64,000 bases of DNA from an uncultured virus (IMG/VR IMGVR_UViG_3300000929_000007) (Duplodnaviria; Heunggongvirae; Uroviricota; Caudoviricetes), in the IMG/VR virus record IMGVR_UViG_3300000929_000007; one strand, 5' to 3'. The translations under genes were made by a program, and so were the position numbers. This document shows, piece by piece, positions 1,947 through 60,893 of this stretch. The notes beneath the pieces were generated by a model. That model saw only the letters and a program-made list of their open reading frames with translations. It did not search any database and was not told where the DNA came from. Position 1 is the first letter of the stretch, and every line of letters starts with the position of its first letter.

Positions 1947-1954
1947 TAAATGTA

Positions 1955-28180: not shown

Positions 28181-31100
28181 ATGGCAGATTTTACAAACCA
28201 AACATTTAAAGAGACTTACCGAGACTTCTATAAAAAAGAAGATGGATACTACCGTGTCCTTTTCAACTCGGGACGTGCTCTTCAAGCACGTGAGTTAACC
28301 GAATCGCAACGAATGATTCATGAAGAAATTGCTAGATTTGGTAGAAACATCTTCAAAGAAGGTGCGATGGTAAATCCAGGCGGCGCGACTGTTGATAACT
28401 CATTAGAGTATATCCGGTTAAGTCCCTCCAGCATCTACACTGATATCGTCGGCAGGGAAGTCACCAACGGTTCTGTAGTATTCACAGTTTTAGAAATCGT
28501 GGACAGTGAGAATAATGATCCAATAACACTGTATGTTAAATACACGGACACTTTGAACGCACAGGTTCTTGACGATTCTGTTGCTCCACGTGTTCTCGCA
28601 TCACAGAGTTTGCGTTTTTCTGATGGTACTACTACTGGAATCAACATGGTTGTTGCTAGCAATACAGCAGAACACCCATGCGCGGGTAAGGCCACTAAGG
28701 CACATCTTGCGGAAGGAGACTTCTTTGTTCAGGGACACTTCGTCTATGTAGAAGGCGGTAGTGCTTTCATTGACAAGTATAGTGGAACCCCAACCGCAGA
28801 CCTAGGATTTCTAGTCCAGCAGTCTATCGTTTCTTCAGCTGAAGATGATAGTCTTTTTGACAACCAAGGACAGTTACCCGATGTCAGTGCTCCTGGCGCA
28901 GATCGTTACAAGATTAAACTTATTCCTACTACACGAGATAAAGTACTAGAAGAAGAAAACTTCGTATTTATCGCACGTGTGGTTAACGGTGTTATTACAC
29001 GAGAAGTTAATTCCTTTGATGCGTACAACCGCATCAACTCTTTACTGGCACAACGCACAAAAGAAGAGTCGGGCGATTACGTAGTAGCAGACTTTACCGC
29101 AATCTTTGAAAACAAAGACGCCAATACTTTTAATGTAGATGTGTCAGAAGGTATTGCTTACGTGGACGGTTATCGTTTGGACGTAGGCGCATCTACTCTT
29201 CAGGTACCTAAAACAACTGGAGACTCTGCTCTACGCGTAAAACTTAATGAGAACGTTCCTGCTATTTTTGGTAACTGGATATACGTAGACCTAGATGACG
29301 TTGGTTCTCAGGGTTTAGGTGATATCAGCACATTCGGTCGATTAGAACTCAGAGACGAAGGTAATATTCTTCTTGGTTATGCTAACCTACGAGGATTACA
29401 ATTAGACCAAGTTGGATATCGCGCATATATATTCAACATCAGAATGAATAAAAATCCTTCGACGCAGATTCAATATAACTTCTCTAATGTAACTCATTTA
29501 GTAGAAGCATCTAGTGGTAATGAAATACCATTGACCAGTAATTCAAATCTTAGTGGTGTCTATGGTACTGCGGATAATAATCTATTATTCCCTCTACCTA
29601 GTGTTGCTGCTAAACCTGATACTATTTCAAATATCGTTTACACTGCTCAGAAATTTTATAGACTAACTTCAAATGGCAGTGGTACTATTTCCATGCCAGC
29701 GAACAGTGTCGAGTTCAGTCAGTGGTTGATTGCGGAGACTAATGGCCCTGTTCGTACTGATGTTGTTATTGAAAGTAATAATATTACTGGATTGACACCA
29801 AGTACTTCGTATGATATAATTAGTTATGAAGAGATAACCGCAGCGCCTAGAACTAAATCATTACAGTCTCTAACAGTCGTAGCGACTCGACCAGACGCGT
29901 CTTGGGCAATACGACCTATAGACCTAGGTGTAATTGACGGGGTATCTTTAGAATCTGTTAAGGTAAGATCATCTAATAGTACCGCTTGGGAAGATGCTGA
30001 TGATATCACATATCAAGTTGACTTCGATGGTGGACAACGTGATAACTACTATGACATGACACGATTGTATGTTAAGCCTGGCTACTCAACCCCGACTGGT
30101 GTTAATGTAGAGATTCAAGTAATCTTCTCACACTTCCAACACTCTAGCTCATCGGGTGGTTTCTTTTGTGCTAAATCTTACACTGGTATGGATATTCAAG
30201 ATATTCCATCACATACGCTAACCAATGGTTCTGTAGTAAAACTAGGTGATAGTTTAGACTTTAGACCATCGGTCGCTACTTCCAGCACATTTACAGTAAC
30301 ACCTTTACCACAGAATGCGTCTTCTATAACAGTGCCTTCAGTTTCATATTACAGTCCACGTATCGATATGTTGGTCGTAAATGCGACTGATAGTCGAGGA
30401 GATATTGGATTCGGGGAACTTCAGGTTATTAGTGGTCAGGCGTCAGAACAACCAAAAGAACCTATCGTTCCAGTAGGTGCGCTACCATTATTTAAGGTTG
30501 AATTGGGGGCATATAGTCACCAAACTAGTGATGTAATCACAACAAAGATTTCTAACAAGCGTTATACGATGAAAGACATCGGTAAACTTGAAGAAGGTAT
30601 AGAGAACCTTTATGAAATCACCTCTCTGAGTTTCCTAGAGAGCAACACAAACTCTCTGGATGTACTTGATGCGCAGGGTCTTAATAGAACCAAAGCAGGG
30701 TTTATTGCGGACAACTTTAATACATTCGATTACTCTGATATAGAACATCCAGACTACCGAGCATCGGTAGATCCTGAAGGATTGATGGGGGCATCATTCC
30801 GTGAACAAGCAGTACGTTTAAAGTACGACGCAACCGACTTGACTAACACTATCACTAGAAAAGGTGACATTGTAACACTACCGTTTACTGACGTTGCTAT
30901 GATTAGTCAAGAGTTGGCTACTGGTATAATGAATATTAACCCGTTTGCGGTAATCACTCAAAACGGTCACTTGGTTCTATCACCATCAACGGATGAGTGG
31001 GTCGAGACTAAGTTCTTACCAGACATTATGCAGCGAGTAGTTCGTCGGATTAACACGTATCTCCCTTCGTTCTTCACTCGTCGTCGGTTCAGAGTACAGT

Positions 31101-33094
31101 CTTCGACAACATCTAGAACTATTACTGAGTATATTGGTCGACGCGTAATGAACATCGAAATTATTCCGTTCATGCGTTCACGTAAGATTAACTTCCGAGT
31201 TCAAGGTTTACGTCCTAACACTCAAATGTATCCAGTATTTGGAAACAAAGTTGTTAACGATTGGGTTCGTCAAGAACCAACATTCACTAACTTCTCGGAC
31301 GATCCTACAGAATATGGTAGTGAGTACATTAGTGCGACCGAATACCCTACTGCTCTAGGTGGTAAGTCTATTCTTACTACAAACTCAGAAGGTGAGTTAG
31401 CGGGCAGTTTCTTCTTACCTAATACTCCGACAATTAATTTCCGTACAGGAAGACAAGAATTTAAATTGTTAGATGTCAACAACTCAGATGAGTCAGTAGC
31501 AACTGCGGTAAGTCGCGCAGGGTACACGGCAGTCGGTACTTTAGAAACAGTACAGAGAACTGTACGTAGTACTCGACTTATAGAGACTACTTATTGGAGA
31601 GATCCTCTCGCACAGACATTTATTGTAGACCAAGTAGAGAATCCAAACGGACTCTTTATTACTAAGGTAGACATATTTGTAGAGAGTAAGGACTCTGTTA
31701 TTCCAATGCAAGTACAAATTCGTCCAGTAGAGAACGGCGTTCCTACTTCACGTATTGTCCCAGGCTCTGTTAAGTTTATCAATCCTTCGAATATTAATGT
31801 TGTTCCTTTTGATAACACAACTGAGATGTCAGATGTTGTAGCAGGGAAAACTACTATTGAGTTCGATGAACCAATTTACTTGACTTCTGGCGAAGAGTAT
31901 GCTTTAGTACTTCTTGCGGAGTCAGTAGAATACAATGTATACACTGCGCAAACATACGAATATGTCGTCGGGCAAAGTCGTTCAGCACGAGTATCACGTC
32001 AGCCTACATTAGGTTCGTTGTTCTTGTCGCAGAACGGTTCTACTTGGACTCCCGATCAGACTAAAGATTTGATGTTTAACTTATACCGTGCGGACTTTGA
32101 AAGTGCCGGTGTACTGGAACTGAAGAATAGTGAACTACCTAAAGTTACATTGGACATTAATCCATTCGAAACTACCCTAGGGTCTTCAATTGTATTCGTA
32201 CATCACGAAGGACACGGATTCTCTAATAATGACGGTGTGCTGATTTCAGGTGTAGCGAGTGCGGTAGGTGGTGTTATTGCTGATTCAATTAATGGATACC
32301 ACAATGTAATCAATCCTACTTGGGCAGGTTACACTATCAACACGGGTGTCGCTGCGACTGCGTCTGCGGTAGGCGGTGGTTCTAATGTTGTTGCGTCCCA
32401 ACAGGTAATGTTCGACCAGTTTATACCACAGGTACAGACTCTCATCCCTAACATGACTTCAATTGATTCTACTATTGAAAAAACATTAGGAGATTCTTAT
32501 GGTACCACTCGTACAACTAGACCACAGAAACTAGACTATACTACTAAGTCTCATCAAGTGGTGTTGAACGAATTGAACGTGAACGATTATCCGGCGGTCA
32601 TAGCAACACAAGCGAATGCTGCGGATACGTTATCTCTCACGCTAAACCTAACTACTGGTGACTCTAAAGTGTCTCCAGTCGTAGACTTACAACGTGTATC
32701 ATTGATTACATTAGAGAATGTTATTGACGGATCGGACGCTGCTCAACACATCACCAAACCAGTTGCGGTTGATGAATCTTCGGTGGGGCTTAAAATCATA
32801 TTCGCTGCGCATCGTGATGTTGGTGTGGAGTTTGATGTATATGTCAGAACTTCATTAACCGAAGACGCGATGTACGAAGTTGATGGCGAAGGTGTTCCGG
32901 TTATTGGTTGGAATCAGGTGACTATAGATTCACCTCTACCTACTGATGATGACCCAGAAACATATCGTGATTATGAGTACACCGTAGAAGCTGATGCGTT
33001 TAACGTCTTCCAGATCAAGATTGTTATGTCAGCAACGAACTCATCTAAATCACCGACGATAACCGACCTTCGCGCTATTGCGTTGGTAATATAA
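28181..33094 (+). CDS. large virion structural protein (DUF4815/VrlC-like)
   Basis: YYRVLFNSGRALQARELT, APGADRYKI, LA.RT.EESGDY, KRYTMKDIG.LE, DPLAQTF, GSLFLSQNGSTW. Confidence 0.8.
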   Translation: MADFTNQTFKETYRDFYKKEDGYYRVLFNSGRALQARELTESQRMIHEEIARFGRNIFKEGAMVNPGGATVDNSLEYIRLSPSSIYTDIVGREVTNGSVVFTVLEIVDSENNDPITLYVKYTDTLNAQVLDDSVAPRVLASQSLRFSDGTTTGINMVVASNTAEHPCAGKATKAHLAEGDFFVQGHFVYVEGGSAFIDKYSGTPTADLGFLVQQSIVSSAEDDSLFDNQGQLPDVSAPGADRYKIKLIPTTRDKVLEEENFVFIARVVNGVITREVNSFDAYNRINSLLAQRTKEESGDYVVADFTAIFENKDANTFNVDVSEGIAYVDGYRLDVGASTLQVPKTTGDSALRVKLNENVPAIFGNWIYVDLDDVGSQGLGDISTFGRLELRDEGNILLGYANLRGLQLDQVGYRAYIFNIRMNKNPSTQIQYNFSNVTHLVEASSGNEIPLTSNSNLSGVYGTADNNLLFPLPSVAAKPDTISNIVYTAQKFYRLTSNGSGTISMPANSVEFSQWLIAETNGPVRTDVVIESNNITGLTPSTSYDIISYEEITAAPRTKSLQSLTVVATRPDASWAIRPIDLGVIDGVSLESVKVRSSNSTAWEDADDITYQVDFDGGQRDNYYDMTRLYVKPGYSTPTGVNVEIQVIFSHFQHSSSSGGFFCAKSYTGMDIQDIPSHTLTNGSVVKLGDSLDFRPSVATSSTFTVTPLPQNASSITVPSVSYYSPRIDMLVVNATDSRGDIGFGELQVISGQASEQPKEPIVPVGALPLFKVELGAYSHQTSDVITTKISNKRYTMKDIGKLEEGIENLYEITSLSFLESNTNSLDVLDAQGLNRTKAGFIADNFNTFDYSDIEHPDYRASVDPEGLMGASFREQAVRLKYDATDLTNTITRKGDIVTLPFTDVAMISQELATGIMNINPFAVITQNGHLVLSPSTDEWVETKFLPDIMQRVVRRINTYLPSFFTRRRFRVQSSTTSRTITEYIGRRVMNIEIIPFMRSRKINFRVQGLRPNTQMYPVFGNKVVNDWVRQEPTFTNFSDDPTEYGSEYISATEYPTALGGKSILTTNSEGELAGSFFLPNTPTINFRTGRQEFKLLDVNNSDESVATAVSRAGYTAVGTLETVQRTVRSTRLIETTYWRDPLAQTFIVDQVENPNGLFITKVDIFVESKDSVIPMQVQIRPVENGVPTSRIVPGSVKFINPSNINVVPFDNTTEMSDVVAGKTTIEFDEPIYLTSGEEYALVLLAESVEYNVYTAQTYEYVVGQSRSARVSRQPTLGSLFLSQNGSTWTPDQTKDLMFNLYRADFESAGVLELKNSELPKVTLDINPFETTLGSSIVFVHHEGHGFSNNDGVLISGVASAVGGVIADSINGYHNVINPTWAGYTINTGVAATASAVGGGSNVVASQQVMFDQFIPQVQTLIPNMTSIDSTIEKTLGDSYGTTRTTRPQKLDYTTKSHQVVLNELNVNDYPAVIATQANAADTLSLTLNLTTGDSKVSPVVDLQRVSLITLENVIDGSDAAQHITKPVAVDESSVGLKIIFAAHRDVGVEFDVYVRTSLTEDAMYEVDGEGVPVIGWNQVTIDSPLPTDDDPETYRDYEYTVEADAFNVFQIKIVMSATNSSKSPTITDLRAIALVI

Positions 33095-35997: not shown

Positions 35998-36735
35998 ATG
36001 GCATATGGTTTACAAATAAAGAATCCCGATGAAGATATCCTATTTGATAGTAATGAAGTTGGTCGTGGAACTGTTACTGTAAGTAAAGGGTATATAGCAT
36101 TTAACACCGGTCTTACCGTTAAGGCGGGACAGTTAGTACTATTTAACATCGGAACACTACCTTTGGGTAGCAAAATCGAGATAAGCGCCACTAAAACTTG
36201 GTTATATGGTGATGTTTTTTCAATCTCCTTCTTCCCTGTAAATAGCGGTGGGTCGCCCGGCGTTACGGGAGTGAACTACGCTGTACTAGAAGATATGGCG
36301 ACACTACCTAAATCGGGTAACTTCGGTTTAGTCTGTAAAACTGGCGCATATGTAACTTCTTTCGATAGTCGTATGTTTCAAACTACCGATGAAGGTGAAG
36401 TTTACATTGATAAATACCAATCTTACATGTATCCGCTTGGTCATGGTATTTATATAACTGCTCCTTATAGTGCAGAAGAATGGATTAGCGCAGCGCAACT
36501 AGAGTTTACTAGTGTAACAGGCTATACAAGAACCTTCTCTATATTGTTCAGCAACTCAGGCTCGCCCGGCACTCAAATCTTCTACGGGGGTAGCAGCTTC
36601 GTCGGTCACATATATGAGCATTCATCGGGTAGTGGATCCTATAATGTATCATACATCGGTGGTTACAGTGGAAGAACTTATACGCAATCCCTCGCCCCCT
36701 ATGTTGTGGGTAAAACCCACCTTGGCGTAGAATAA
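35998..36735 (+). CDS. tail-tip-associated protein (two YGL/FGL modules)
   Basis: MAYGLQIKNPDEDILFDS and internal NFGLVCKTGAYVTSFDSR. Confidence 0.55.
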   Translation: MAYGLQIKNPDEDILFDSNEVGRGTVTVSKGYIAFNTGLTVKAGQLVLFNIGTLPLGSKIEISATKTWLYGDVFSISFFPVNSGGSPGVTGVNYAVLEDMATLPKSGNFGLVCKTGAYVTSFDSRMFQTTDEGEVYIDKYQSYMYPLGHGIYITAPYSAEEWISAAQLEFTSVTGYTRTFSILFSNSGSPGTQIFYGGSSFVGHIYEHSSGSGSYNVSYIGGYSGRTYTQSLAPYVVGKTHLGVE

Positions 36736-36762
36736 CATAATTTAAATTGGAGAAAATATAAC

Positions 36763-37260
36763 ATGAGCGACAACGAAAGAGGGGTTAGCCCTATAGTAGC
36801 ACTTCACGATGAAAATGGAGTGATTAAAAGAACGGATTTAGATAATGGCATTTATCCCGAAGATGGTGTTACTGACCGTAATGGTCATATAATTCACCGT
36901 ATCTATGAATGTGCCGGTAGTGTAGCATTAGAAGAATTTGTAAACACTCATGTATGGGATGACGAATTGGACGAATGGTTGACTGTTGACCGTCGACCTA
37001 ATTATCATTCATTCTGGGATAGAAGTGTAACACCCGCGAAGTGGACATGGGACAAAGAAGTTATCAAGGGCGAGATTCGCGCTCAAAGAGATATTAAACT
37101 TCTCCATACTGATTGGGCTATGCTACCTGATGCTCCACTTTCAGCTGAAAAACGACAACAATACATTGATTACCGTCAAGCGTTAAGAGATATCACTGAT
37201 ACAGTAGACCTAACCGTAGTAGACTCCGTAGATAAAGTTGTTTGGCCTCAAGAAGTTTAA
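36763..37260 (+). CDS. tail fibre assembly chaperone
   Basis: IRAQRDIKLLHTDWAMLPDAPL....Y..YRQALRDI...V.WP. Confidence 0.8.
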   Translation: MSDNERGVSPIVALHDENGVIKRTDLDNGIYPEDGVTDRNGHIIHRIYECAGSVALEEFVNTHVWDDELDEWLTVDRRPNYHSFWDRSVTPAKWTWDKEVIKGEIRAQRDIKLLHTDWAMLPDAPLSAEKRQQYIDYRQALRDITDTVDLTVVDSVDKVVWPQEV

Positions 37261-37279
37261 CTTATTATACGAATCTAGA

Positions 37280-37360
37280 TAAACCCACTTATCAACCCGT
37301 ACAAAAGAATTCTTATAAATACGAGAAAGTCTTAAAATTATGGGATGATAAGTGGGTTTA
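37280..37360. repeat. perfect 15-bp inverted repeat enclosing a late promoter
   Basis: TAAACCCACTTATCA (37280-94) / TGATAAGTGGGTTTA (37346-60). Confidence 0.9.
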
Positions 37361-37383
37361 CACATTTCATAATCTTATAAATA
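37314..37383 (+). promoter_or_regulatory. tandem T4-type late promoters
   Basis: TATAAATA at 37314-21 and 37376-83. Confidence 0.7.
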
Positions 37384-37433
37384 ACAGTGTTATTAGCAAT
37401 TAATTTCAACTTAACAAAAAGAGAGCGATAATT

Positions 37434-40400
37434 GTGTCAGCATCGAGCATCCCATTAAAAATTAAAAATTCGAATGGTGACCTACAGGAATTCACTCCTA
37501 CGGAAGAGAACTATCTTGCGTATGCGGTGGGACAAGCACTAGCATCTTCTCCTTCAAGTGATACGGGTCAAATTACTTTGACCGGTGATATGAGTATTGG
37601 TACATTTATTGATACTTTTTTCAATGAAGCAACGGGTACGCACCCTGCTTCTCAAATCACTTCCGGTTCTACCACTACTACGTTATATCAAAATGGTGGA
37701 ACCGCGAATGAAGTAGGTGCGAACTTTGTCCGTCCAGTAGGATACTACGATACCTCAAATCCCGGCTTCTACGAAATGGTAGATGGTGATTTGAATAATC
37801 TTGCTAATCGAGTTCTAAGTAATCTTGCTCAAAATGATTACGTAGGTACTTTCAGATTAGCAGCATCTTCGCCTGGCGTAGACTATATTCAGTTTATTCC
37901 TAACGTATTCAAGGATACAAGGGGAGATGGAACCGAAACTCAATACAGTATCTATATAAGAAACAATATGACCGCAATTGCTGCGGTTCGTCCAGTTTCA
38001 ACATCATATGATGTCAGCGGTAACTTCACTGGTTTCCGAGAAATGACTGATGATCAAATCCAGTTCACTCTTGGTCAGAGAATTAAAACACTACGCGCAA
38101 CCGCAGGCAACATTGGTTCTTATCAATTGCGTTCATCTTCACAAGGTGTACCAACTGCCCCAGGCACTTGGAAGGCTGTAGGTACCGCACTAAACACTAA
38201 AAGAAATACCGCAGAAGTTTCATATGCTAGAACACGTAATAGTGCTTATACTCGTGCTCGTATTTCTTCTTATACTCGTGACCGTAACTCAACATTTAGT
38301 AGGGTTTCTACTCGCGTTAGTACTCAAGACTTCGCTGGCAACTATGTCGGCAATTATACTCGTGACTTTGCTGGCAACTATAGCCGCAACTTCGCTGGAG
38401 AATATGTTGGAGATTTCACGGGTAATTACTCTCGTGACCGTCAGTCAACTTATTCACGTGACCGCATAACTAACTTCTCTCGTACATTTACTGGCGAATA
38501 TGTATTGAACCGTCAGTCAACCTACACTCGTGTTAGGTTACAGGGATTTGTTGGTAACTTTACTGGTTACTATGCCCGCGCACGTGTGTCTACATTCGCT
38601 CGTAACCGTATTACTAATTTCACTGGTGTGTTTACACGTACTCGTCCGTCATCCTATACTCGCGGCCGTGTATCAACTTACGCAGGCACATATGCTCGTA
38701 CTCGTGTTTCCTCATATTCAGGAACATACTCGCGTAACCGTGTAAGTTCTTATGCGGGAACATACTCGCGTAACCGTGTTTCTGCTTACGCAGGCACATA
38801 TGCTCGTACACGTTCTTCTGCTTATTCTGGTGTTTATGCTCGTACACGTGTTTCTACTTACTCAGGCACATATGCTCGAGACTTTGTAGGTAACTATTCT
38901 CGTTCATTCTCTGGCCAGTATGCTGGTGCGTTTACTCGTACACGTCCTTCATCGTTCTCAGGAACATATGGTCGTACACGTGTTTCTGCTTACGCCGGAA
39001 CATATGCTCGTAACTTTGCCGGTAACTATACTCGCGGTTTTGTAGGAAACTACACCGGAGAGTTTACTCGTGCTCGTGGTTCAACGTTCTCAGGTACTTA
39101 TTCACGTAATCGTGTTTCTGCTTACGCCGGAACATATGCTCGTAACCGTGTTTCAACTTATTCTGGTGTTTATTCGAGAACTCGTACTTCAGCATACTCT
39201 GCTGATTACACAAGAACTCGTATCACTGACTATACTCGTGACCGTGTAACTAATTTCGCTGGTATTTACTCAAGAGCTCGCGTATCTGCTTATGTTCGCA
39301 ATCGTGTAACTAACTTTGCCGGTAACTTCGTCGGTAACTATGCTAGAAATTTTGTCGGAGACTATGCTAGAAATTTTGTCGGAGACTATGCTCGTGCTTT
39401 TGCTGGCGACTTCGTTGGTAACTATGCTCGTACATCTACTCGTACATCTGCTCGTACTCGTTACTCAGCTTACGCCAGAACACGCATCACTAACTATGTT
39501 GGTGACTTTACTCGCGATTCTACCATAACTTCAACACGAACTCGTTATTCAGCTTACGCCAGAACACGCATCACTAACTATATTGGTGACTTTGCTCGTG
39601 ATCGTGTAACTAACTTTGCGGGTAACTTTGTAGGTAATTATGCTACTACCTTTACTGGTGACTTCGTAGGTAACTACGCGACTACCTTTACTGGCGACTT
39701 CGTAGGTAACTACGCGACTACCTTTACTGGTGACTTCGTAGGTAATTATGCTACTACCTTTACTGGTGACTTTGTAGGTGATTATGCCCGAAACTATGTC
39801 GGCGACTATGCTGGTGACTTCGTAGGTAATTATGCCCGTACTCGCATAACTGATTATACTCGTACCCGTGGTTCTGCTTACGCACGTACTTCTACACGTA
39901 CTCGTTACTCAGCTTACGCTCGTAATGCAATTCAGACTTCAACTCGTACGCTAGCTTATACTCGTGTATTGTATTACGCAGGAAACTTTGTCGGTAACTA
40001 TCTCCGACCTGTAACATACACTGGTAACTATANNNNNNNNNNNNNNNNNNNNNNNNNNNNNNNNNNNNNNNNNNNNNNNNNNNNNNNNNNNNNNNNNNNN
40101 NNNNNNNNNNNNNNNNNNNNNNNGTAACATACACTGGTAACTATAGTCGTCCCGTAACATATACTGGTAACTATACTAGAGTTGATACATACACTCGTGC
40201 TCCCTCATTTATCGGAGACTATGTCCGTTATTCAAACCCATACAATACCATGATATCTTATATGGGTAACTATACTAGTACGACATCTTATATTGGTAAC
40301 TATAGTCGTTCAAGCGCGGCGACGGCGGCTTACTCACGCACTGCCGGAACTTATGCGCGATATCAAGGATATTGGCAGTTCTACACCCTGACTGTGTACT

Positions 40401-42508
40401 ACACGCGTGTAACAGGGTACTTCATTACTTCTTATACTCGTACATCAACAGCAACAGTTGATTATACTCGTACCCGTCTCGTATCTGCAGCAGAGTACTA
40501 TACTCGTACCCCAGTGTATACCGGTAACTATACGCGTACCGTTGATTACACACGTGCTCGTGCCGCAACAGAAACATATACACGTGATCGTGCCGCAACA
40601 TTAGATTACACACGTGCTCGTGCCGCAACATTAGATTACACACGTGCTCGTGCTGCGAATGAAGATTACACACGTGACCGCGTGACTGATTTTACTGCTA
40701 CCGGCTATTATACTCGTGTTGGATACTACGCTGGCGACTACATTGGTGACTATGCTCGTGGTTATGCTGGCGACTTCGTTGGTAACTACGCAAGAGACTT
40801 CGTCGGTAATTACGTTGGTGACTTCGTTGGTGAATATGCTCGTACATCAACACGTACATCAACACGTACTCGTCCATCAGCATACTCTCGTACACGTGTT
40901 ACTCCTTACGTGGGTGACTTTACTCGTACACGCATCACCAACTATGTTGGTGACTTNNNNNNNNNNNNNNNNNNNNNNNNNNNNNNNNNNNNNNNNNNNN
41001 NNNNNNNNNNNNNNNNNNNNNNNNNNNNNNNNNNNNNNNNNNNNNNNNNNNNNNNNNNNNNNNNNNNNNNNNNNNNNNNNTATGTTGGTGACTTTGCTCG
41101 TGATCGTGTAACTAACTTCGCAGGAAACTTCGTCGGTAACTACGCAACTACTTTCACTGGTGACTTCGTTGGCAACTATGCTCGCGGCTTTGCGGGTGAC
41201 TATGCCGGTAACTATATTGGTAACTACGCAACTACTTTCACTGGCGACTACGTTGGTAACTATGCTCGTGCCTTCGCAGGTGACTTTGCTGGTGACTTCG
41301 TTGGTGAATATACTCGTACATCTACACGTAGTCGTGTTTCTGCTTATGCCCGTACTCGTGTTTCTGCTTATGCCCGTACTCGTGGTAGCGCATACACTCG
41401 TGATCGTATAACTGACTTTGCCGGTGACTTTGCGGGTAACTACGCAAGAACATTTGCTGGCGAATATGCTCGTAACTACGCGGGTAACTTTGCCGGTAAT
41501 TACGTCGGTGACTTTGTGGGTAACTACGTCGGTAACTACGCACGTGACTTCTCTGGTCAATATACTGGAGTTTACTCTCGTGGTTTCGCTGGCGAATATG
41601 CTGGTACTTACTCACGCGGTTTCTCTGGACAATATACTGGCGTATATGCTACCTCTTATACTGGTAACTATAGTCGTGATTTCGCGAGAACTCGTGTTTC
41701 TGCTTATGCCCGTACTCGTGTTTCTGCTTATGCTGGTACTTACTCACGTAATTTTGCGGGTGAATACACTGGTGCGTATGCTACTTCTTATGTTGGTAAC
41801 TATGCTCGTGACTTCTCAAGAACTCGTGTAGAGACTTATTCCCGTACACGTCCATCGTCGTACGCTGGTACTTACTCACGTGGATTCGTTGGTGAATATA
41901 CTGGTACTTACTCACGTGGATTCTCTGGTCAATACACTGGTGTTTACTCACGCAATTTTGCGGGTGAATACGCTGGTACTTACGCAAGAACATTTGCGGG
42001 TAACTACTCACGAGACTACGCTGGTAACTATACTCGTGATTTCGCAGGCGATTTCGCAGGTAACTACGCAAGAACATTTGCTGGCGAATATGCCGGTGCG
42101 TACACAACTGAATTCGTAGGTGACTTTACTGGTAACTACGCAAGAACATTTGCGGGCAACTATATCCGTAACCGTGTTTCTGCTTACGCCGGTAACTTCA
42201 TTGGTAATTACACTCGTGGATTCTTAGGTGAATATACTCGTAACTCAACTGATACTTTCAGCCGAGTTCGAGTGTCTGCTTACTCGCGACTACGTACTTC
42301 AGCATACTCTGCTGATTACACTCGGGTTCGTACATCATCATATGCTGGCGACTTCACTGGTGACTATGCTCGTGACTTCACTGGTAATTACTCAAGAGAC
42401 TTTGCTGGTAATTACTCTCGCGCATTTGTTGGTGATTATGTTGGTACCACAATTCAATCGTCTTACTCGACAGTTGAAGCATATACTTTATATGTAAGAA
42501 CCGCATAA
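37434..42508 (+). CDS. giant tetrapeptide-repeat protein (~1,690 aa; single gene inferred across N-gaps), probable virion fibre
   Basis: Late promoters upstream; ~260-aa non-repetitive N-domain; repeats [YF]xGx, YxRx, RxSx; the frame after the 40033-40123 gap (VTYTGNYSRP...) is continuous with the 40250..42508 ORF. Confidence 0.8.
38223..42448 (+). repeat. 12-nt-period coding repeat array
   Basis: Tetrapeptide register maintained over both arms, e.g. (FVGN YATT FTGD)x4 and (YxRx RVSx YxGT)n. Confidence 0.95.
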
Positions 42509-42511
42509 TAT

Positions 42512-42540
42512 TTGACAACAGACTGATATTAGTGTATAAT
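42512..42540 (+). promoter_or_regulatory. sigma70 consensus promoter inside the late region
   Basis: TTGACA(42512)-N17-TATAAT(42535). Confidence 0.7.
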
Positions 42541-42552
42541 GGTTAATAAATT

Positions 42553-42582
42553 GGGTGGGTCAGAAATGGCCCACTTATTTTT
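42553..42582 (+). terminator. putative intrinsic terminator
   Basis: GGGTGGGTCA-GAAA-TGGCCCACTT then ATTTTT. Confidence 0.6.
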
Positions 42583-42633
42583 ATCATATATAATACTGAA
42601 TTGAATTTAATACCCCTTTTGGAGAATGAATAG

Positions 42634-43083
42634 ATGAGTTACAGAAAGTGGATGGACAATGCTTTTTGGGAAACAGACGCAAAAGATAAGTTGAACTGTA
42701 TCCTAGAAATGGAAGATGATGTTGGAAGAGTAACAAGGCAAGTAATGTTACTGAACCGTGTAGATAAAGACGGTAATCCAAATGAGTTGTTTGATGAAGT
42801 CATCGGGTCTGTAGGTGAAGATAACATTGATAAAGAAACAACTAATCGGGTAACACGCAAAAATGCCGAGCAAGAAGAAGAAAAGCAGCGCGAACTAGAA
42901 CACCAGAAGGCGCGTAAGTTAGAGAAACTCTTCAATTATAAATTAGAAGCATTTGAGGTTGATGAGATTAAAGCCTCTAAGAACCGCAAATTAAAAGGAA
43001 AGTTACGTCGTGCGAAGTCTCGTATCGAAGTAGACTTGTACTCTATTCTCATTCTACAGGAATCTCTGGAAGGGACTGAGTAA
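42634..43083 (+). CDS. hypothetical protein
   Basis: GGAG SD; 149-aa charged helical ORF, TAATG-coupled to the next gene. Confidence 0.75.
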   Translation: MSYRKWMDNAFWETDAKDKLNCILEMEDDVGRVTRQVMLLNRVDKDGNPNELFDEVIGSVGEDNIDKETTNRVTRKNAEQEEEKQRELEHQKARKLEKLFNYKLEAFEVDEIKASKNRKLKGKLRRAKSRIEVDLYSILILQESLEGTE

Positions 43084-43811
43084 TGGAGAAGACCAAAGGG
43101 TTCGTAATTGTAGCATCAAATAAACCTAACTTTTATTTGTATGCTCTTAACCTCGCAGAAAGTCTAAGAGACTTCTATGAGGATTGTAAAATCTGTCTCG
43201 TGACAGAAGAAAAATATATTGACGAACGTGGTTATGATGTTGCCGATGATGTTATTATCTGCGACAACCATTATCGTGCTAAGTTATGGGGTATGGCACG
43301 TTCGCCATATGACATAACAATGTATATTGATGCTGACATGGAATGTGAGCACGAAGACATCATCAAGGTATGGGATGAGATGAAAGACTACGATGTGGTA
43401 TTCTCTGAACTGACTGATGATCGCGACTACATTTATGCGGAACGTGATTTCTCCACACCAGAAGGTATGGCTAAATTTACTCTTTGTGGTGGGGTATGTT
43501 TGTATGATATGACTAAACCAATCGTCCGCGAATTTATGCAGGATTGGTGGGATTTAACATACAAGCAAATGAATGATACTTGGTGGCCCGAAGGTTATAT
43601 TGATTCTCTAAAGTCTTGGGATCAGTTCTCCCTCTGGTGGTTGACCGAGAAAGAAGAAAAATATAAGGATCTCAAAGTTGGTATCTTCGATGACGACTTG
43701 AGATGGAATTATTACAATGCCTTCAACTGGGCAAGAACTAAACCTGAGACAGGGCCCGTGATTTTACGTCACTTCTCTGCTGGTTTAAATAAGGACACAC
43801 CAATCGTATGA
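43083..43811 (+). CDS. GT-A fold glycosyltransferase-like protein (GT8-like)
   Basis: KGFVIVA, K.W...SPYDITMYIDAD (DxD), GGV.LY, WDQ.SL, RWN, ILRH. Confidence 0.72.
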   Translation: MEKTKGFVIVASNKPNFYLYALNLAESLRDFYEDCKICLVTEEKYIDERGYDVADDVIICDNHYRAKLWGMARSPYDITMYIDADMECEHEDIIKVWDEMKDYDVVFSELTDDRDYIYAERDFSTPEGMAKFTLCGGVCLYDMTKPIVREFMQDWWDLTYKQMNDTWWPEGYIDSLKSWDQFSLWWLTEKEEKYKDLKVGIFDDDLRWNYYNAFNWARTKPETGPVILRHFSAGLNKDTPIV

Positions 43812-44539
43812 CACAGGTAAACGACCAATATCTAAAGCATATCGACGTTAATAATCCAGAACTTCTGGAGATACTTGGGGAATATGCTAAACTTCATACT
43901 TGGGCTGGTTTTGAAAAGAACTGCCACTTGAATGGAGCAGAACATATTCGCCAGCGTAGTTACTACGTCGGCGCGCCATATATGAACGAAATTCTTGACC
44001 AGAAGACTGCTCATGAAGGGTTCCCTGACCAACTAGTAGGATATAACTTCAAGTTATCCGAACGGGCTCACNNNNNNNNNNNNNNNNNNNNNNNNNNNNN
44101 NNNNNNNNNNNNNNNNNNNNNNNNNNNNNNNNNNNNNNNNNNNNNNNNNNNNNNNNNNNNNNNNNNNNNNNNNNNNNNNNNNNNNNNNNNNCATAACGCA
44201 TTGTGCGCAGTATACCCGCCAGGCGGATATATCTCTTGGCACAATAATGCTAACGCTCCGGGCTTCAACCTAATCTTCTCTTATTCTGGAGATGGTTCTG
44301 GTTACTTTGATTACATTCATCCTGAAACTAAGGAAGTTGTTCGTTGCCAAGACAAGCCCGGCGTGTGGACTTGTAAAGCCGCATACTTCGGACACTACCG
44401 TGAACCAGAAACCCTTCTTTATCACGCAGCTGCTGCCGATACTGACTGGCGTTGTACAGTATCTTATGTATTTGATACTACTGATGGTTCAGATGCTCTA
44501 CGTGATCTAGTATTGGAAGACATTGCGTCTGCTGAATAA
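43808..44539 (+). CDS. 2OG-Fe(II) oxygenase/cupin-like protein (N-gap inside)
   Basis: YPPGGYISWHNN, distal LYHAA, RCTVSY. Confidence 0.6.
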   Translation: MTQVNDQYLKHIDVNNPELLEILGEYAKLHTWAGFEKNCHLNGAEHIRQRSYYVGAPYMNEILDQKTAHEGFPDQLVGYNFKLSERAHXXXXXXXXXXXXXXXXXXXXXXXXXXXXXXXXXXXXXXXXHNALCAVYPPGGYISWHNNANAPGFNLIFSYSGDGSGYFDYIHPETKEVVRCQDKPGVWTCKAAYFGHYREPETLLYHAAAADTDWRCTVSYVFDTTDGSDALRDLVLEDIASAE

Positions 44540-49408: not shown

Positions 49409-52400
49409 ATGTCATTTAGACAAATTAAATCACCAGCATTAGCAGATCGGTCTATAATTAGTACCAAACTAGACTCAAGTGCTGTTACGGGACAAACCCT
49501 TCTTACCGGAATGGCCAATCCTGCAGATTGCTTTACGCTGCTATACGATGTAGGTTCTGACTCGCTTAAGAAAATTAGTACTGCGGCATTCTTCGGAAGC
49601 TTTGATACTGACGACTTGGCAGAAGGTTCCAAACAGTACTTTACACCGCAACGCGCTCAAGACGCTGTTGCCGCAGATATTGCTTCTGCTGTTGCTGTAG
49701 AAACTGCTCGTGCTACTGCTGCTGAAGGTGTTAACGCAACTTCAATCGTAACTGAAACAAATCGTGCTACCGCTGCTGAAGTTGCTAACGCAACTGCTAT
49801 TTCAACAGAAACAAATCGCGCAACTGTTCGCGAAAACGCAATCGAATCCGCATACCAGACAGCTGACGCTGCCTTATCAGTTCGTATTGATAACATTCTA
49901 ACAAATACTGATTCTGACGCACTTAACTCTCTAGCAGAAATTGTTGTTGCTTTCCAAAACGCTGATAGTGTATTGACCGCGTCTACTATTGCTAACTCTA
50001 GTGCTATCTCGGGTGAAGTCGCTCGCGCCACTGCTGCTGAGACTGCTAACGCAACTGCTATCGCTAGTGAAGTAACTCGCGCAACTGGCGTTGAAGCTGG
50101 TCTACAGTCTTCAATCACTAGTGAAGCGGCAACTCGTTTGGCTGCCGATGGTGCTCTTGACGCTCGTTTGACTGTTGCTGAAGGTGATGTAAGTTCACTA
50201 GAAACTGATCTTGCCGCAGAAATTTCTCGCGCTGGTCAAGCAGAACAAGTTAACGCATCTGGTCTTGCTGCGGAAATCGTTCGTGCGACTGGAGCAGAAG
50301 CTGCTAACGCTACTAACCTTCAAGCAGAAATCACTGCTCGTGCCGCTGCTGACACTTCAGTCCGCGTTGACATGACTTCATTGATTACTAATGGTGATGC
50401 TGCAACTCTTGTATCTGCTAAAGCAAATGACAACCTACTAATCGGTGACGCATCTGTCGACGGTTCTTCAGGTAATACTGTTACTGATCGTGTTAGTTCA
50501 GCAGTTGCTACTGAAACAACTCGTGCGCAGGGTCAAGAATCTGCTATTCGTAGTGAATTTGCTCTTGCCGATAGTGACCTTCAATCAGGTCTAGACGCAG
50601 AAATCGCTCGTGCTACTGCTGCTGAAGGCGTTAATGCTTCCGCAATCTCTACAGAGACTAGTCGTGCGACTGGTGAAGAAAGTCGAATCGAAGCGAAATT
50701 GGACAATGTTATTGCTAACACCGATCCCGCCGCTCTTGATTCATTGACTGAAATCGTTGCTGCGTTCGTATCTGCTGACTCTGATATGTCTGCGTTGATC
50801 GCGTCAAACACTGTAGCAATTAATGCTGAAGCTGGTGTTCGCGCATCTGCGGACTCAGTACTACAAACTAATATCACAACTGAAGCATCAACTCGCTCAG
50901 GTGCTGATACTACTTTACAATCTAATATTACTGCTGAAGCAACTGCTCGAATTGCCGGTGATGCCGCAACTCTTGTATCTGCCCAAACAGATGCGACTTC
51001 TAAAGCAGACGCTGCTGAAGCTGCCGCTATCGTTCACGCAGACGCACAAGACACCGCACTTATCGGTGACGCATCTGTTGATGGTACTGTTGGTAATACT
51101 CTTACTGCTCGTATCGCAACTGCTAAATCTCAAGCATCTACTTACACTGACACAAAGGTTTCTGCTGAAGCAGCAACTCGTTTGGCAGCTGATAACGCAT
51201 TGTCTCTACGCGCATCTGCATTAGAAGGTGATGTTTCAACTCTTCAAGGTGAGATGGATACTGTTGAAGCAGACATCCTTGCTGAGACTGCTCTACGTGT
51301 ATCTGGAGACGCAAGTGTTCAGGCAGGTCTTGCTGCAGAAATCACTCGTGCTACTGCTGCGGAAGGTGTTAACGCATCAGCAATCCTAGCGGAAACTACT
51401 CGTGCTACTGCGGCAGAAGTTGCTAACGCAACCGCAATCTCTAACGAAGTAACTCGCGCATCTGGTGTCGAAAGTGGACTACGTGTTGATGTAGACGCAA
51501 ACACTGTTACTGGTGCTGCTAACGCTGCCGCAATTAGTGTCGAGACTACTCGTGCTCTTGCTGCTGAAGCTGTCAACGCATCTGGTCTTGCTGCAGAAAT
51601 CGCTCGTGCTACTGCTGCGGAAGGTGTTAACGCAACTTCAATCGCAACTGAAGCTGGATTACGTGCTGCTGGCGATGTTGCTCTACGTACTGACGTTGAC
51701 GCGAATGCCCTATCAATCTCTGGTGTTGACTCTGATCTTTCTGTTGAAATCGCTCGTGCTACTGCCGCAGAAGGTGTTAACGCATCTGGTCTTGCTGCAG
51801 AAATCGTTCGTGCTACTGGCATTGAGTCTGGTCTACGCACTGACGTTAACACAGTAACCGGTCGTGTTGATGCTATCATCGGTACTTCTCCAGAAACTCT
51901 TGATACACTTCAAGAAATCGTTGCTGCGTTCGAAGGTGCTGATTCAGACATCCAGAACATTATCAATAACAACTCTGGTCGTTTGACTGCTGCTGAAAGT
52001 GACATCGATGCTGTTGAAGTACGCGCTACTGATTTAGAGTCACGCTCAACTGCTCTTGAAGGTCGTGCTACTACTCTTGAGTCTGTGCAATTAGCACAAG
52101 GTGGTCGTCTAACAGTTAACGAAGGTGACATTGACGGTCTAGAATCTAAAGTTGGCGTTGCCACTCTAGGTACTACTGCTACTAACCTATCTGCTGCTAT
52201 CAATGAAATCCACTCTGAACTAGATGTTGAAGCTGGTAAAGTTTCTACACTACAAGGTGAGATGACTGCTGTTGAAGGTCAAGTCACAGTTCTAGAAGGC
52301 GAAATGAATGCTGTTGAAGCTGAACAAGCTCTACAGGCAGGTCGTTTAACAGTTAACGAAGGTGACATCGACTCACTAGAATCTAAGATGGGTTCTGGCG

Positions 52401-54496
52401 TATTCGCTACAACTTCACAAACTGCTGTTGGTTCTTCGAACGAACTACACGGTGAAATTAATGCTATTGAGGCTCGCGTAGATTCTGCGGAAGCGGACAT
52501 CCTTTCAAACGCTGCTGCTATCTCAGCTGAATCTTCTCGTGCGCTTGGTCAGGAAACTGCCATCCGTTCAGAATTTGCTGCTGCTGATACTGCCATAACT
52601 TCTGCTTACATTGCTGCCGATGCGGTTGTTCTTTCATCTGCCTCTGTCGACGCAACTACTAAAGCNNNNNNNNNNNNNNNNNNNNNNNNNNNNNNNNNNN
52701 NNNNNNNNNNNNNNNNNNNNNNNNNNNNNNNNNNNNNNNNNNNNNNNNNNNNNNNNNNNNNNNNNNNNNNNNNNNNNNNNNNNNNNCGCACGAACGCTGA
52801 TGCCGTATTACAATCCGCAATCGATGCTGAAGTAACTGCCCGTCTAAGTGCTGACGCTACTCTAAGTTCACGTGCTACTGTACTTGAAACTGAAATGACT
52901 GCGACTCAGTCAGGTGCTGGTCTTGCTGCTAACGGTAACTATGTTGCTCCAAGTGGTACTAACTTCCTAGACACTGCTGTTACATTGAAAGATGCTGATA
53001 GTAAATTGGATGCTGCTCTTAAAGCGGAACAGACTCGTGCTCTTGCTGCTGAAGGCGCAAACACTACTTCAATCAACAACGAAATTGCTGCTAGAATCGC
53101 GGGCGACTCTGACCTACAGGTTAGTCTTGACGCGGAAGTATCACGTGCTCTTGCTGCTGAAGGTGTATTGACATCTAACGTTTCTATTAACGCTGCTTCG
53201 ATTGTGACTGAATCTAATTCACGTCAAAGTGCCGATGCTAACTTACAGTCTCAGATCGACTTTATTAAAGCCAACACTGATTCTGCTGCTCTGGATTCGT
53301 TAACTGAAATCGTAGCTGCCTTCCAGGCTGCTGACGGTACTCTTACTGGTCTAGTATCTCAGAACCAAACTGATATCGCAACTAACGCTTCAGGTCTTGC
53401 TGCGGAACTTACCGCACGTGCGGCACAGGGTTCTGCGATTCGTGGTGAGTTCGCTGCTGCTGACACTCTTCTTCAGACAAACATTAACGGTAAGGTTTCT
53501 AAGTCTGGCGATGCGATGTCTGGCGATCTAGACATGTCCGGTAACAAGGTCGGTGGTCTTGCAGACGGTACGGTTTATGCTGACGCAGTTAACAAAGGTC
53601 AGTTGGACGCGGGTCTTGCTGCACAGCATATCTCTCAGTTTGATACTAGCGACCTTCTAGAAGATCCGAATGGTACTAACCTTTACTTCACAAATGCTCG
53701 CGTTCACGCGGCAGTATCCGTCACTGACGTTTCTGGTGAAGGTAATGTTTCTGTAACAAACGGTGTGTTCTCTTTAAACACTGCTAAGGCATTCGTTGAA
53801 CTAACTGATGTTACAGATTCAACTATCACTGGTAAGGAAGGTTTTGTTGCTCGTGTTAAGACTGATGGTTCTGGTATCGAACTTGTTGACCCAACACAGC
53901 TGGCGTTTAACAATGCTCAACGTCAGACTATTAGTGGTGACGGTGCTCAGACTACATTCGCATTAAACTTCGCAACTCTAGAAGCTAACGCGATGGTATT
54001 TGTTGGTGGTGTTGTACAGGATCCATCTGTACACTATAACATCGACTCTGAAGCACAGACAATCAGTTTCAACGCAGCGATTCCTGTTGGTACACAAGCG
54101 GTAGTTATCGCTCAGTCTACTAACTCGGTTGGTGTACTAGATCCTAAGTCTGTTGGTCTAGAAACTCTTGCTGATAACATCAAAGTCTTCGAACAAGGCA
54201 ATGATATTGTTGTAGGAACTTCTGCTACAGTAGTTTCTTCATTCAACTCAGCAAACTACCGAACTGCTAAGTACATCGTTACTGTCGCAAATGGTAGTGA
54301 GTTCGAAACACGCGAATGTCTAGTTATTCACAACGGAACTGACGCTTTCATCACTGAATACGGTATCGTATACACTGGTGCGGCATTACTAGGTGATACT
54401 GATATACGTGTTACTGGTTCTACTGTTGAACTATTATACACTTCTGTATCAGCTGGTTCTGTAGTTTCTGTATCTGCTACATACGTCGACGCATAA
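49409..54496 (+). CDS. very long Ala-rich coiled-coil fibre protein (N-gap inside)
   Basis: 1695 aa; repeated E[IVT]xRATAAE and LDSLTEIVAAF motifs; C-terminal YRTAKYIV...HNGT..ITEYG domain. Confidence 0.8.
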   Translation: MSFRQIKSPALADRSIISTKLDSSAVTGQTLLTGMANPADCFTLLYDVGSDSLKKISTAAFFGSFDTDDLAEGSKQYFTPQRAQDAVAADIASAVAVETARATAAEGVNATSIVTETNRATAAEVANATAISTETNRATVRENAIESAYQTADAALSVRIDNILTNTDSDALNSLAEIVVAFQNADSVLTASTIANSSAISGEVARATAAETANATAIASEVTRATGVEAGLQSSITSEAATRLAADGALDARLTVAEGDVSSLETDLAAEISRAGQAEQVNASGLAAEIVRATGAEAANATNLQAEITARAAADTSVRVDMTSLITNGDAATLVSAKANDNLLIGDASVDGSSGNTVTDRVSSAVATETTRAQGQESAIRSEFALADSDLQSGLDAEIARATAAEGVNASAISTETSRATGEESRIEAKLDNVIANTDPAALDSLTEIVAAFVSADSDMSALIASNTVAINAEAGVRASADSVLQTNITTEASTRSGADTTLQSNITAEATARIAGDAATLVSAQTDATSKADAAEAAAIVHADAQDTALIGDASVDGTVGNTLTARIATAKSQASTYTDTKVSAEAATRLAADNALSLRASALEGDVSTLQGEMDTVEADILAETALRVSGDASVQAGLAAEITRATAAEGVNASAILAETTRATAAEVANATAISNEVTRASGVESGLRVDVDANTVTGAANAAAISVETTRALAAEAVNASGLAAEIARATAAEGVNATSIATEAGLRAAGDVALRTDVDANALSISGVDSDLSVEIARATAAEGVNASGLAAEIVRATGIESGLRTDVNTVTGRVDAIIGTSPETLDTLQEIVAAFEGADSDIQNIINNNSGRLTAAESDIDAVEVRATDLESRSTALEGRATTLESVQLAQGGRLTVNEGDIDGLESKVGVATLGTTATNLSAAINEIHSELDVEAGKVSTLQGEMTAVEGQVTVLEGEMNAVEAEQALQAGRLTVNEGDIDSLESKMGSGVFATTSQTAVGSSNELHGEINAIEARVDSAEADILSNAAAISAESSRALGQETAIRSEFAAADTAITSAYIAADAVVLSSASVDATTKXXXXXXXXXXXXXXXXXXXXXXXXXXXXXXXXXXXXXXXXXRTNADAVLQSAIDAEVTARLSADATLSSRATVLETEMTATQSGAGLAANGNYVAPSGTNFLDTAVTLKDADSKLDAALKAEQTRALAAEGANTTSINNEIAARIAGDSDLQVSLDAEVSRALAAEGVLTSNVSINAASIVTESNSRQSADANLQSQIDFIKANTDSAALDSLTEIVAAFQAADGTLTGLVSQNQTDIATNASGLAAELTARAAQGSAIRGEFAAADTLLQTNINGKVSKSGDAMSGDLDMSGNKVGGLADGTVYADAVNKGQLDAGLAAQHISQFDTSDLLEDPNGTNLYFTNARVHAAVSVTDVSGEGNVSVTNGVFSLNTAKAFVELTDVTDSTITGKEGFVARVKTDGSGIELVDPTQLAFNNAQRQTISGDGAQTTFALNFATLEANAMVFVGGVVQDPSVHYNIDSEAQTISFNAAIPVGTQAVVIAQSTNSVGVLDPKSVGLETLADNIKVFEQGNDIVVGTSATVVSSFNSANYRTAKYIVTVANGSEFETRECLVIHNGTDAFITEYGIVYTGAALLGDTDIRVTGSTVELLYTSVSAGSVVSVSATYVDA

Positions 54497-60544: not shown

Positions 60545-60893
60545 CAAAGAAGAGAAACGTAATTTTGTACATGAACAAGACTATGAATACTCTCGTGAAA
60601 CTTACTACGACCTTATTGAAAAGGGTCGTGAGTCTTTAGAGTTGATGATTGAGGTAGCTCGCGAAAGTGAGCACCCCCGAGCATTTGAAGTTCTGGCTGG
60701 TATGATTAAAGGTATCGCTGACGTTAACGATAAGTTAATGGATTTGAACAAGAAGCAGAAAGAACTTTTAAAAGACGATAGACCCGCAGACGCAACAACT
60801 ACTAATAACAATTTATTTGTAGGTTCTACTACAGACCTTCAGCGCATGTTATTGGGTGGTGATGAAAAGGTGATTGATCAGGACGATTCATAA
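60516..60893 (+). CDS. gp16: terminase small subunit gp16
   Basis: DYEYSR..Y.LI.KG, A..SEHPRAFEV, NNNLFVGST.DLQ. Confidence 0.92.
   Translation: MMSKVPTVSNKEEKRNFVHEQDYEYSRETYYDLIEKGRESLELMIEVARESEHPRAFEVLAGMIKGIADVNDKLMDLNKKQKELLKDDRPADATTTNNNLFVGSTTDLQRMLLGGDEKVIDQDDS

Follow-up and report, generated by a model that had tools for sequence, protein, structure and literature searches.

The closest described phage-fibre parallel to the protein reported here is the tip needle of T4 gp37, in which, by the 2010 account of Bartual et al., each chain reportedly runs out to a head domain and back, with the tip lying mid-segment. We describe a single open reading frame (ORF) on the + strand at positions 37434-42508 of IMG/VR virus record IMGVR_UViG_3300000929_000007, an uncultured member of the Caudoviricetes. 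The ORF is a putative fibre gene lying within the tail-fibre block of a T4-like marine phage. Throughout, the window denotes the whole stretch of 64,000 nucleotides that was analysed. The encoded protein has an N-terminal and a C-terminal arm (N-arm and C-arm) built of four-residue units, and we confirm that mirror pairing between the two arms is real and evolutionarily maintained.

In the literature cited here, the gp37 needle is a six-stranded structure with antiparallel strands (PMC9659904, PMC7291167), measures about 150 by 25 Å, i.e. about 15 nm (PMC3004832), and holds in its core iron atoms bound by histidines (PMC6957217). In the SMC and Rad50 arms the chain extends for about 50 nm, reaches the hinge as its apex and then returns (PMC4255302, PMC4306524), and T4 gp5 is described as an octapeptide beta-helix (PMC3004832).

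For the present locus, an original prediction made by a model from the letters and a list of ORFs held that two arms of about 700 residues, encoded between 38223 and 42448, pair unit by unit in the manner of a nucleic-acid stem-loop. The ORF list and frames bear out this placement and its reading frame. Two runs of N lie inside the gene (40033-40123 and 40957-41080), and a straight translation of 38223-42448 breaks because the first of them shifts the apparent frame.

Results

Units of the two arms are complementary in mirror order

The arms are rich in Gly, Thr, Tyr and Arg with a period of four residues, and within each unit positions 1 and 3 are informative. Four unit types occur, namely Y-x-R-x, R-x-S/T-x (or S-T-R-x), F-x-G-x and Y-x-G-x. 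The rule that relates them is simple: an R-initial unit (RxSx or STRx) stands opposite a Gly unit, mostly FxGx, and YxRx stands opposite YxRx or YxGx. Tetrapeptides were parsed forward from 38223 and backward from 42448, and removal of N-arm units 49-54 (38811-38882) left 114 unit pairs. The hand count of 50 R- or S-initiated units facing aromatic-x-Gly was reproduced exactly, with 35/35 in the N-arm and 15/15 in the C-arm. The looser habit ascribed to YxRx units was likewise recovered, these being opposite YxRx (22), YxGx (25) or unclassified units (6) and, in the window count, never opposite R-units; R-units faced R- or YxRx-units 0 times.

Local affine alignment in which the sole rule was that R faces G gave the window an antiparallel score of 45.75, against 25.0 for the parallel orientation. 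The C-arm was randomised by full shuffling, by Markov models of orders 1-3 and by shuffling of 6-unit blocks, with 300 replicates each. Shuffled unit orders did not match the window: null means were 19.5-24.1, the maximum was 35.5 and 0/300 replicates reached 45.75 in any null (z = 7.9-12.6 across the five nulls). The unit order had been called aperiodic, which holds only in part, there being local runs with periods of 2, 3, 7 and 11 units.

Nor is the mirror relation a nucleic-acid effect, whether by DNA or RNA complementarity. As the original prediction stated, the arms are not a DNA inverted repeat; they share just 4 inverted matches of chance size (16-21 nucleotides). Watson-Crick complementarity between them averaged 24.7% over 121 antiparallel offsets (maximum 33%), where composition alone predicts 24.6%, and a search of 36000-44000 against Rfam returned no match.

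A gap-free twin resolves the apparent bulge

A second IMG/VR locus, L003, carries the gene without N and matches the window with 0 mismatches over all three sequenced segments. From it the true gap lengths could be read (the run of 91 N stands for 38 nucleotides and that of 124 N for 58), and relative to it the window is without 72 nucleotides (24 residues, 6 units) between 41860 and 41861. Mirror alignment of L003 contained 143 unit pairs and 0 bulges, with the two start positions summing to 1917 for each pair; 64 pairs were R:G and 0 were R:other. The N-arm units at 38811-38882 pair in L003 with residues 1437-1460, which are absent from the window. Since the L003 mirror is gapless, the 6-unit bulge that the original prediction required is explained by the absent 72 nucleotides and ceases to be an intrinsic feature of the protein.

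Two further claims, that 2-residue register shifts are mirrored and that the pattern continues beyond the gaps, were both observed in L003. Slips of two residues flank one YTRV unit at mirrored positions in both arms. Past the last aligned pair the mirror extends into the apex, now repeating every 10 residues: a Gly unit, then a YxRx unit and 2 further residues, lie opposite 2 further residues, a YxRx unit and an RAAx unit. The mirror centre falls at L003 residue 960, about position 40364 of the window. The C-arm is rich in FxGx and YxGx units, opposite the R-units of the N-arm.

Loci L004, L006 and L007 share the 1675-residue length and unit order of L003, and L005 is a short form like the window. 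At the 72-nucleotide site, contigs from 4 public runs break at repeats and 0 bridge the site. The position of both runs of N and of the 72-nucleotide loss inside repeats points to scaffolding or to collapse during assembly.

The aromatic residue of a Gly unit follows its partner

In L003 the Gly units opposite R-units were F-initial in 53/64 cases, and those opposite YxRx were Y-initial in 29/29. This partner-dependent bias was present in all nine proteins examined, being weaker in L034 and L036. As a reading of the pairing tables, distinct from any measured contact, no allowed pair has more arginines than aromatic rings. A finer code at the x positions between R and G units was not detected (most mutual-information values did not rise above noise, z being below 3), and the F/Y choice alone held. 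Autocorrelation of aromatic positions and alignment of aromatic spacings gave equal mirror and parallel values; both are uninformative because of the period-4 lattice. At each of the four unit positions of L003 the six most frequent residues do not include histidine, no search for an iron-binding His motif having been made.

Relatives keep equal arms in a constant register

A search with the N-terminal domain (N-domain) returned 35 IMG/VR loci, in which this domain is 56-100% identical. Nine of these (9/35) run off their contigs and were excluded; the 26 with a complete gene represent 22 distinct sequences of 1163-2282 residues, and with Phage C48C1 the set comprises 23 proteins of 1163-3347 residues. 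Each was aligned against itself in a hairpin-type alignment, and together they yielded 1701 R:G pairs as against 61 R:other pairs. Exceptions were listed for ten proteins; 2-residue shifts close to the apex, where the parsing slips, account for most of them, but not for a few in C48C1 or for a single one in each of L009 and L013.

Among the 22 IMG/VR proteins the number of bulged units needed was 0 in 12, 1 in 9 and 6 in L005, and arm lengths were equal within 0-3 residues in 21/22. Paired spans ranged from 398/398 residues in the shortest protein to 978/977 in the longest. The register constant held for 99-219 consecutive pairs and returned to the same value after 2-residue excursions. For six relatives, four kinds of null with 100 replicates each gave z values of 8.1-25.5, parallel scores being 19-50 and antiparallel scores 45-98.

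The C48C1 protein has an N-arm span of 1003 residues and a C-arm span of 1807 residues, which becomes 1007 once four inserts totalling 800 residues are subtracted. This homologue (L002, OQ984149.1, 112-10155; 3347 residues) shows register jumps of 170, 158, 157 and 314 residues, which mark non-repeat domains inserted in the putative returning arm only, and about 70 residues around residues 1990-2130 occur twice in tandem. A motif of its first insert recurs at the tip mirror centre of P0141, a family member of unrelated length, a hint that domains have been exchanged between tip and arm.

The arms change together

When arms were exchanged among proteins, the cognate N/C combination was best in 13/13 rows and columns of the gapped score matrix. 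Without gaps, the N-arm of L003 made 64 good and 0 bad pairs with the cognate C-arm, while with other C-arms the counts were 26-56 good and 12-33 bad; the closely related L014, L022 and L032 were not separated in this gapless count.

N-arms were aligned with N-arms and C-arms with C-arms in 14 protein pairs, and indels of at least 4 units were scored as partnered if the other arm had one of the same kind, within 1 unit in size and within 15 units in position from the base. Compensating indels mirrored between the arms, proposed beforehand as a test on homologues, were found: 25/38 N-arm indels have a C-arm partner, and 22/27 do in the 12 closer comparisons, i.e. without the two most divergent. 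Net arm-length change was identical in 12/14 comparisons and one unit apart in 2, an agreement partly built into how the arms are delimited. Examples are explicit. From L033 to L034 there are +21 units at 71 and +26 at 98 in both arms; from L028 to L025, +44 units at 41 in the N-arm and at 42 in the C-arm; and from L013 to L036, changes of -18, -5, -7, +3 and +2 units in both arms. Identity among the 132-nucleotide repeats that underlie the largest expansion is only 70-75%, which marks them as old rather than as assembly artefacts. A few pairs also flip orientation between relatives, as in RVTN:FVGN to FAGN:RGSA.

Taken together, equal lengths, arm swaps and paired indels uphold the claim that the two arms constrain one another in antiparallel register, residue for residue.

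A wider family with several dialects

Of 1.84 billion representatives searched, an N-domain profile matched 398 representative clusters at E<=0.001; at E<=1e-30 the number was 200. A YTLYVR-type tail ends 92/155 family proteins examined, these 92 all exceeding 400 residues and spanning 404-4046, and columns of the C-terminal tail are invariant in the family alignment. That the N-domain and the last ~20 residues belong together at the base had been part of the original prediction; the invariant tail columns and the shared tail motif do place both at the same end of the paired region.

A base-anchored R:G mirror was recovered at z >= 4 in 18/86 shuffle-tested representatives (30 shuffles each), and distant members kept the rule, with R:G to R:other counts of 30:0 in P0094, 22:1 in P0065, 18:0 in P0044, 17:0 in P0141 and 14:0 in P0084. 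Residue type was disregarded in a second measure, which counts how far aromatics on the period-4 lattice run from the N-domain and from the C-terminal tail; it is crude and fails in many proteins. Over 90 representatives these two lengths correlated (Spearman 0.65) and agreed within 8 residues in 32/90, permuted partners giving 7.8 +/- 2.6 with a maximum of 19 in 2000.

Other residue patterns appear in the arms of some members. By eye, P0102 (422 residues) has seven F-x-G-V-R-type octapeptides in its N-arm and five F-x-G-P-Q-P-Q-type octapeptides in its C-arm, and its base blocks of 10 and 6 residues are matched in length and swapped in type between the arms. The arms of P0007 are strongly acidic, of Y-x-G-[DE] type, and repeat every 12 residues, and P0002 and P0004 have aromatic-every-4 arms with few Arg units and a very long Gly/Pro/Tyr-rich centre. 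In P0001 (1798 residues, running off its contig) the N-domain is split by an insertion of ~600 residues and Pfam matches are to PF14312 and PF13385; the base domain thus tolerates large insertions.

Database searches placed the family nowhere. Three family proteins matched 0 Pfam families, SMC and ABC families included; neither the N-domain nor the full 1675-residue protein had a phmmer match in the PDB at E<=1; PHROGs gave nothing significant, with three sub-threshold matches (E 0.0015-0.0072); and the ESM Atlas gave unnamed viral clusters only, below 0.9. A full-text literature search on fibre repeats, fold-back fibres, cyanophage tail fibres, C48C1 and gp37 found no description of the family.

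Gene features and genomic setting

Coordinates of the gene, its parts and the adjoining upstream gene are collected in Table 1. Long ORFs on the opposite strand or in other frames inside 40250-42508, e.g. 40877-41560 (-), a 227-residue 'VTxxVTxx' frame, are by-products of the codon-level repeat and not genes.

Table 1. Positions in the window of the fibre gene, its proposed parts and the adjoining upstream gene
Feature	Position	Strand	Remarks
Whole fibre gene	37434..42508	+	~1651 residues in window form; 1675 residues in gap-free twin L003
N-terminal non-repeat domain, residues 1-263	37434..38222	+	Proposed base/attachment domain; conserved family hallmark
Putative outgoing N-arm, residues 264-839	38223..39950	+	Units YxRx, RxSx/STRx, FxGx, YxGx; from unit parse and pairing
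Six N-arm units without partner in the window (bulge)	38811..38882	+	From unit pairing
Apex/putative tip, L003 residues 840-1080	39951..40726	+	Includes N run 40033-40123; outer parts mirror-paired with 10-residue period
Putative returning C-arm, L003 residues 1081-1656	40727..42448	+	Includes N run 40957-41080
Conserved C-terminal tail, 19 residues ending in YTLYVR-type motif, and stop codon	42449..42508	+	
Upstream gene resembling tail-fibre assembly chaperones	36763..37260	+	PHROG 4912 'tail fiber assembly', E 2.4e-14

The fibre gene follows directly after the chaperone-like gene, and its neighbours match baseplate wedge, tail fibre and 'tail fiber assembly' PHROGs; it thus has the location in a tail/baseplate module, next to a chaperone-like gene, that is generic to tail fibres. 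Gene order is the same in Phage C48C1, where the gene at the chaperone-like position is annotated 'tail assembly chaperone'. Among 50,697 phage records C48C1 is the only one with a related N-domain, and it is filed under Kyanoviridae. The large terminase of the window (60893-62515) is 85% identical to that of C48C1 and 47-49% identical to those of cyanophages and of the Methylophilales phage Melnitz, which makes the Kyanoviridae assignment of the nearest record a poor guide to the host.

Elsewhere in the window, a collagen-like tail-fibre gene at 21764-24055 has many PHROG fibre matches and contains N at 23890-24019; more runs of N come after it, at 24150-24266 and 24689-24795. Three more very large structural genes stand in the same block, at 28181-33094 (1637 residues), 49409-54496 (1695 residues) and 54568-57996 (1142 residues); the first has a match in PHROG 358, a group of unknown function (score 1020), and the second has a run of N and a weak PHROG match only. 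The phage seems to carry an unusually rich fibre set. Marine and estuarine water is the source of all 20 public runs in which the stretch was found; these runs come from 20 studies, and 6/20 are metatranscriptome libraries, a provenance that does not prove transcription.

Discussion

Our findings point to a protein counterpart of the stem-loop. We consider it probable that the gene encodes a virion fibre whose chain goes out and back on itself in antiparallel fashion, its base formed by the N-domain and the C-terminal tail and its tip encoded by the middle of the gene. The chain would leave the 263-residue N-terminal domain as an extended arm of four-residue units, reverse at a central tip (a tight turn in small relatives, an irregular or globular region of 70-400 residues in larger ones) and return antiparallel in exact residue register, to end in a conserved tail of ~20 residues proposed to sit against the N-domain. 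Register would be fixed by the pairing rule between opposing units. Several such hairpins, probably three, may form a bundle of the kind seen in other fibres and in the T4 gp37 needle; the mid-gene tip may carry host recognition. At ~0.33 nm per arm residue, the fibre would measure ~130 nm in the 1163-residue form, ~200 nm here and >300 nm in the longest forms. We infer a beta conformation for the arms because the informative positions, 1 and 3, would share a face of the strand and the arms slip by two residues at a time. An extended strand with a single conserved face would fit these slips and the alternation of informative residues with small polar ones.

Several observations weigh against this proposal. 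The beta conformation, the oligomeric state and the residue contacts are all deduced from sequence, and structure prediction lent little help. AlphaFold2 modelling of the full 1163-residue L033 from a 20-row alignment gave a mean predicted local distance difference test score (pLDDT) of 29, an unusable model. A 299-residue apex fragment run as a single sequence was equally unusable (mean pLDDT 33) and contained local hairpins only; the element modelled with the highest confidence (pLDDT about 78), a local hairpin of residues 777-815, falls within the C-arm and is not what the long-range model predicts. The six-unit stretch of the window and L005 stays unmatched there, whether as a tolerated bulge or through assembly collapse. 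Thirteen of the 38 larger indels (13/38) have no clean partner, mostly in the two most divergent comparisons, and changes of unit class in both partners number 0-2 per comparison, too few for statistics. In the wider family, the representatives beyond those with a recovered R:G mirror have few R-units and, in many, other residue patterns, and the R:G test is uninformative for them. Finally, the mirror rule, the equal arms, the paired indels and the arm swap would be expected just as well if the pairing partners were different chains. A complex prediction with 3 N-arm and 3 cognate C-arm pieces returned no answer (score 0.00) and weighs neither way.

It is this last arrangement, with the N-arm of one chain lying along the C-arm of another, head to tail, that forms the main rival, and we hold it to be unlikely. 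The outcome would be a rod with an N-domain and the partner's C-terminal tail at each end and two 'tips' side by side in its middle. In its favour, repeats in the small relative P0102 pass through the centre with no distinct loop sequence. Yet the rod would be two-ended and symmetric, whereas attachment to the baseplate at one end is the fibre norm, and globular tips of 70-417 residues would have to sit paired in mid-rod. In members whose unpaired centre is <=45 residues, the mirror centre falls on Gly/Pro/Asn-rich turn-like motifs, with Pro within three residues of it in 5/12 short-tip members (L028, L033, P0027, P0055 and P0095), where pairing between chains needs no turn at all. In the L033 model, the only semi-confident hairpin (696-713, block-mean pLDDT about 47-51) lies <=2 residues from the computed centre at 706. 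The turn motifs at the centre, this hairpin and the fit of a one-ended fibre to tail attachment lean towards reversal within the chain, which we judge the likely arrangement, in preference to chain-to-chain pairing.

The arms might conceivably not touch at all, each being read instead against a two-fold-symmetric third partner or lattice, such as a virion protein or a host polymer, or being shaped by an assembly constraint. Arm contacts have not been observed directly and the structure predictions are unusable, which leaves room for this idea; we nevertheless find it very improbable, as a register exact to the residue over 99-219 consecutive unit pairs, and restored after 2-residue slips, speaks against it, as do the partner-dependent F/Y choice and the cognate-arm specificity, both expectations of direct packing, and no candidate partner is known. 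That the pattern reflects chance, a compositional gradient, a local repeat of the beta-solenoid kind or a nucleic-acid palindrome seen through translation is hardly credible. Both arms are of low complexity with local periodicity, which inflates naive counts; yet Markov, block-shuffle and parallel nulls fall far below the observed scores (z about 8 or more in 7 proteins), and independent lineages keep the rule with different unit orders. The palindrome reading was rejected on the lack of an inverted repeat and base complementarity at composition level.

If the within-chain fold-back is correct, the consequences can be far-reaching. The distal, probably receptor-binding, tip would be encoded mid-gene rather than at the C-terminus, which would change where host-range determinants are sought in such marine phages, and the distal part of the fibre could be swapped as one contiguous DNA segment. 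The pairing rule would amount to a simple, length-tunable recipe for very long, thin protein rods, the natural arms being about 400 to 1000 residues. Were the arms indeed to pair, the three-dimensional register of a protein of >1000 residues would be readable from its sequence and checkable by covariation, as for RNA; we know of no comparably clear precedent in beta-rich proteins. It is tempting to go further and see here a class of protein architecture that has not been described before: a 'stem-loop' fibre of beta strands, hundreds of nm in length, whose two strands are held in register by a readable tetrapeptide code, with compensatory evolution like that of RNA helices, several 'dialects' spread over a large family of marine phage proteins that lack annotation, and a host-recognition tip in mid-gene; on this larger proposition we stand evenly balanced. 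For a large family without a Pfam, PHROG or PDB relative, the present description provides a first working annotation.

Comparison with known systems

The RNA stem-loop is the most literal analogy. It shares with the fibre arms mirror-order complementarity, flips from R:G to G:R, compensated insertions, bulges and an apical loop; it differs in that the fibre is a protein whose 'letters' are tetrapeptides, whose rule is degenerate and whose encoding nucleic acid is not self-complementary. Beta-solenoid or beta-helix fibres such as T4 gp5 resemble the arms in being phage tail proteins with short, Gly-containing repeats and alternating inward-facing residues. Solenoid repeats, however, contact their sequence neighbours, which predicts neither a relation between residue r and residue K-r nor equal halves, and both are observed here: the halves are constrained by one another rather than locally (equal arms in 21/22, paired indels in 25/38, cognate arm best in 13/13). 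Collagen-like and polyglycine-II folds, which have Gly at every third residue, do not fit a period of 4 in which Gly occupies position 3 of some units only.

The gp37 needle comes closer. Dedicated chaperones assist gp37, and a chaperone-like gene adjoins the fibre gene here; the antiparallel strands of the needle may have their counterpart in the antiparallel register that mirror complementarity and paired indels strongly support between these arms. The needle is a homotrimer, and the present fibre may be one as well. The original prediction had it that no fibre with such an architecture has been described, and this must be qualified: the gp37 needle, on the chain path attributed to it, is the nearest phage-fibre precedent. 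The two have no sequence relation, with no significant Pfam, PHROG or PDB match to connect them. The scale also differs, the gp37 needle extending some tens of residues each way, whereas here the whole shaft is paired over 400-1000 residues each way. The iron-coordinating histidines of gp37 follow a His-x-His spacing; the arms described here follow a tetrapeptide rule of Arg, aromatic residues and Gly.

The long antiparallel intramolecular coiled coil of SMC and Rad50 offers the same out-and-back course with halves that match in length, and SMC arm lengths co-vary. In SMC and Rad50 the arms belong to DNA-acting ATPases and form alpha-helical coiled coils, whereas the arms described here are Gly/Thr/Tyr/Arg-rich, of period 4, presumably beta, and belong to a phage structural protein; they are also several times longer and carry an explicit unit-by-unit complementarity. 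Neither heptad repeats nor an ABC ATPase head was found, there being no Pfam match and a period of 4, and the resemblance is architectural only. The family thus belongs to neither the gp37 needles nor the SMC proteins; its nearest precedent is gp37, and its nearest architectural analogue is SMC.

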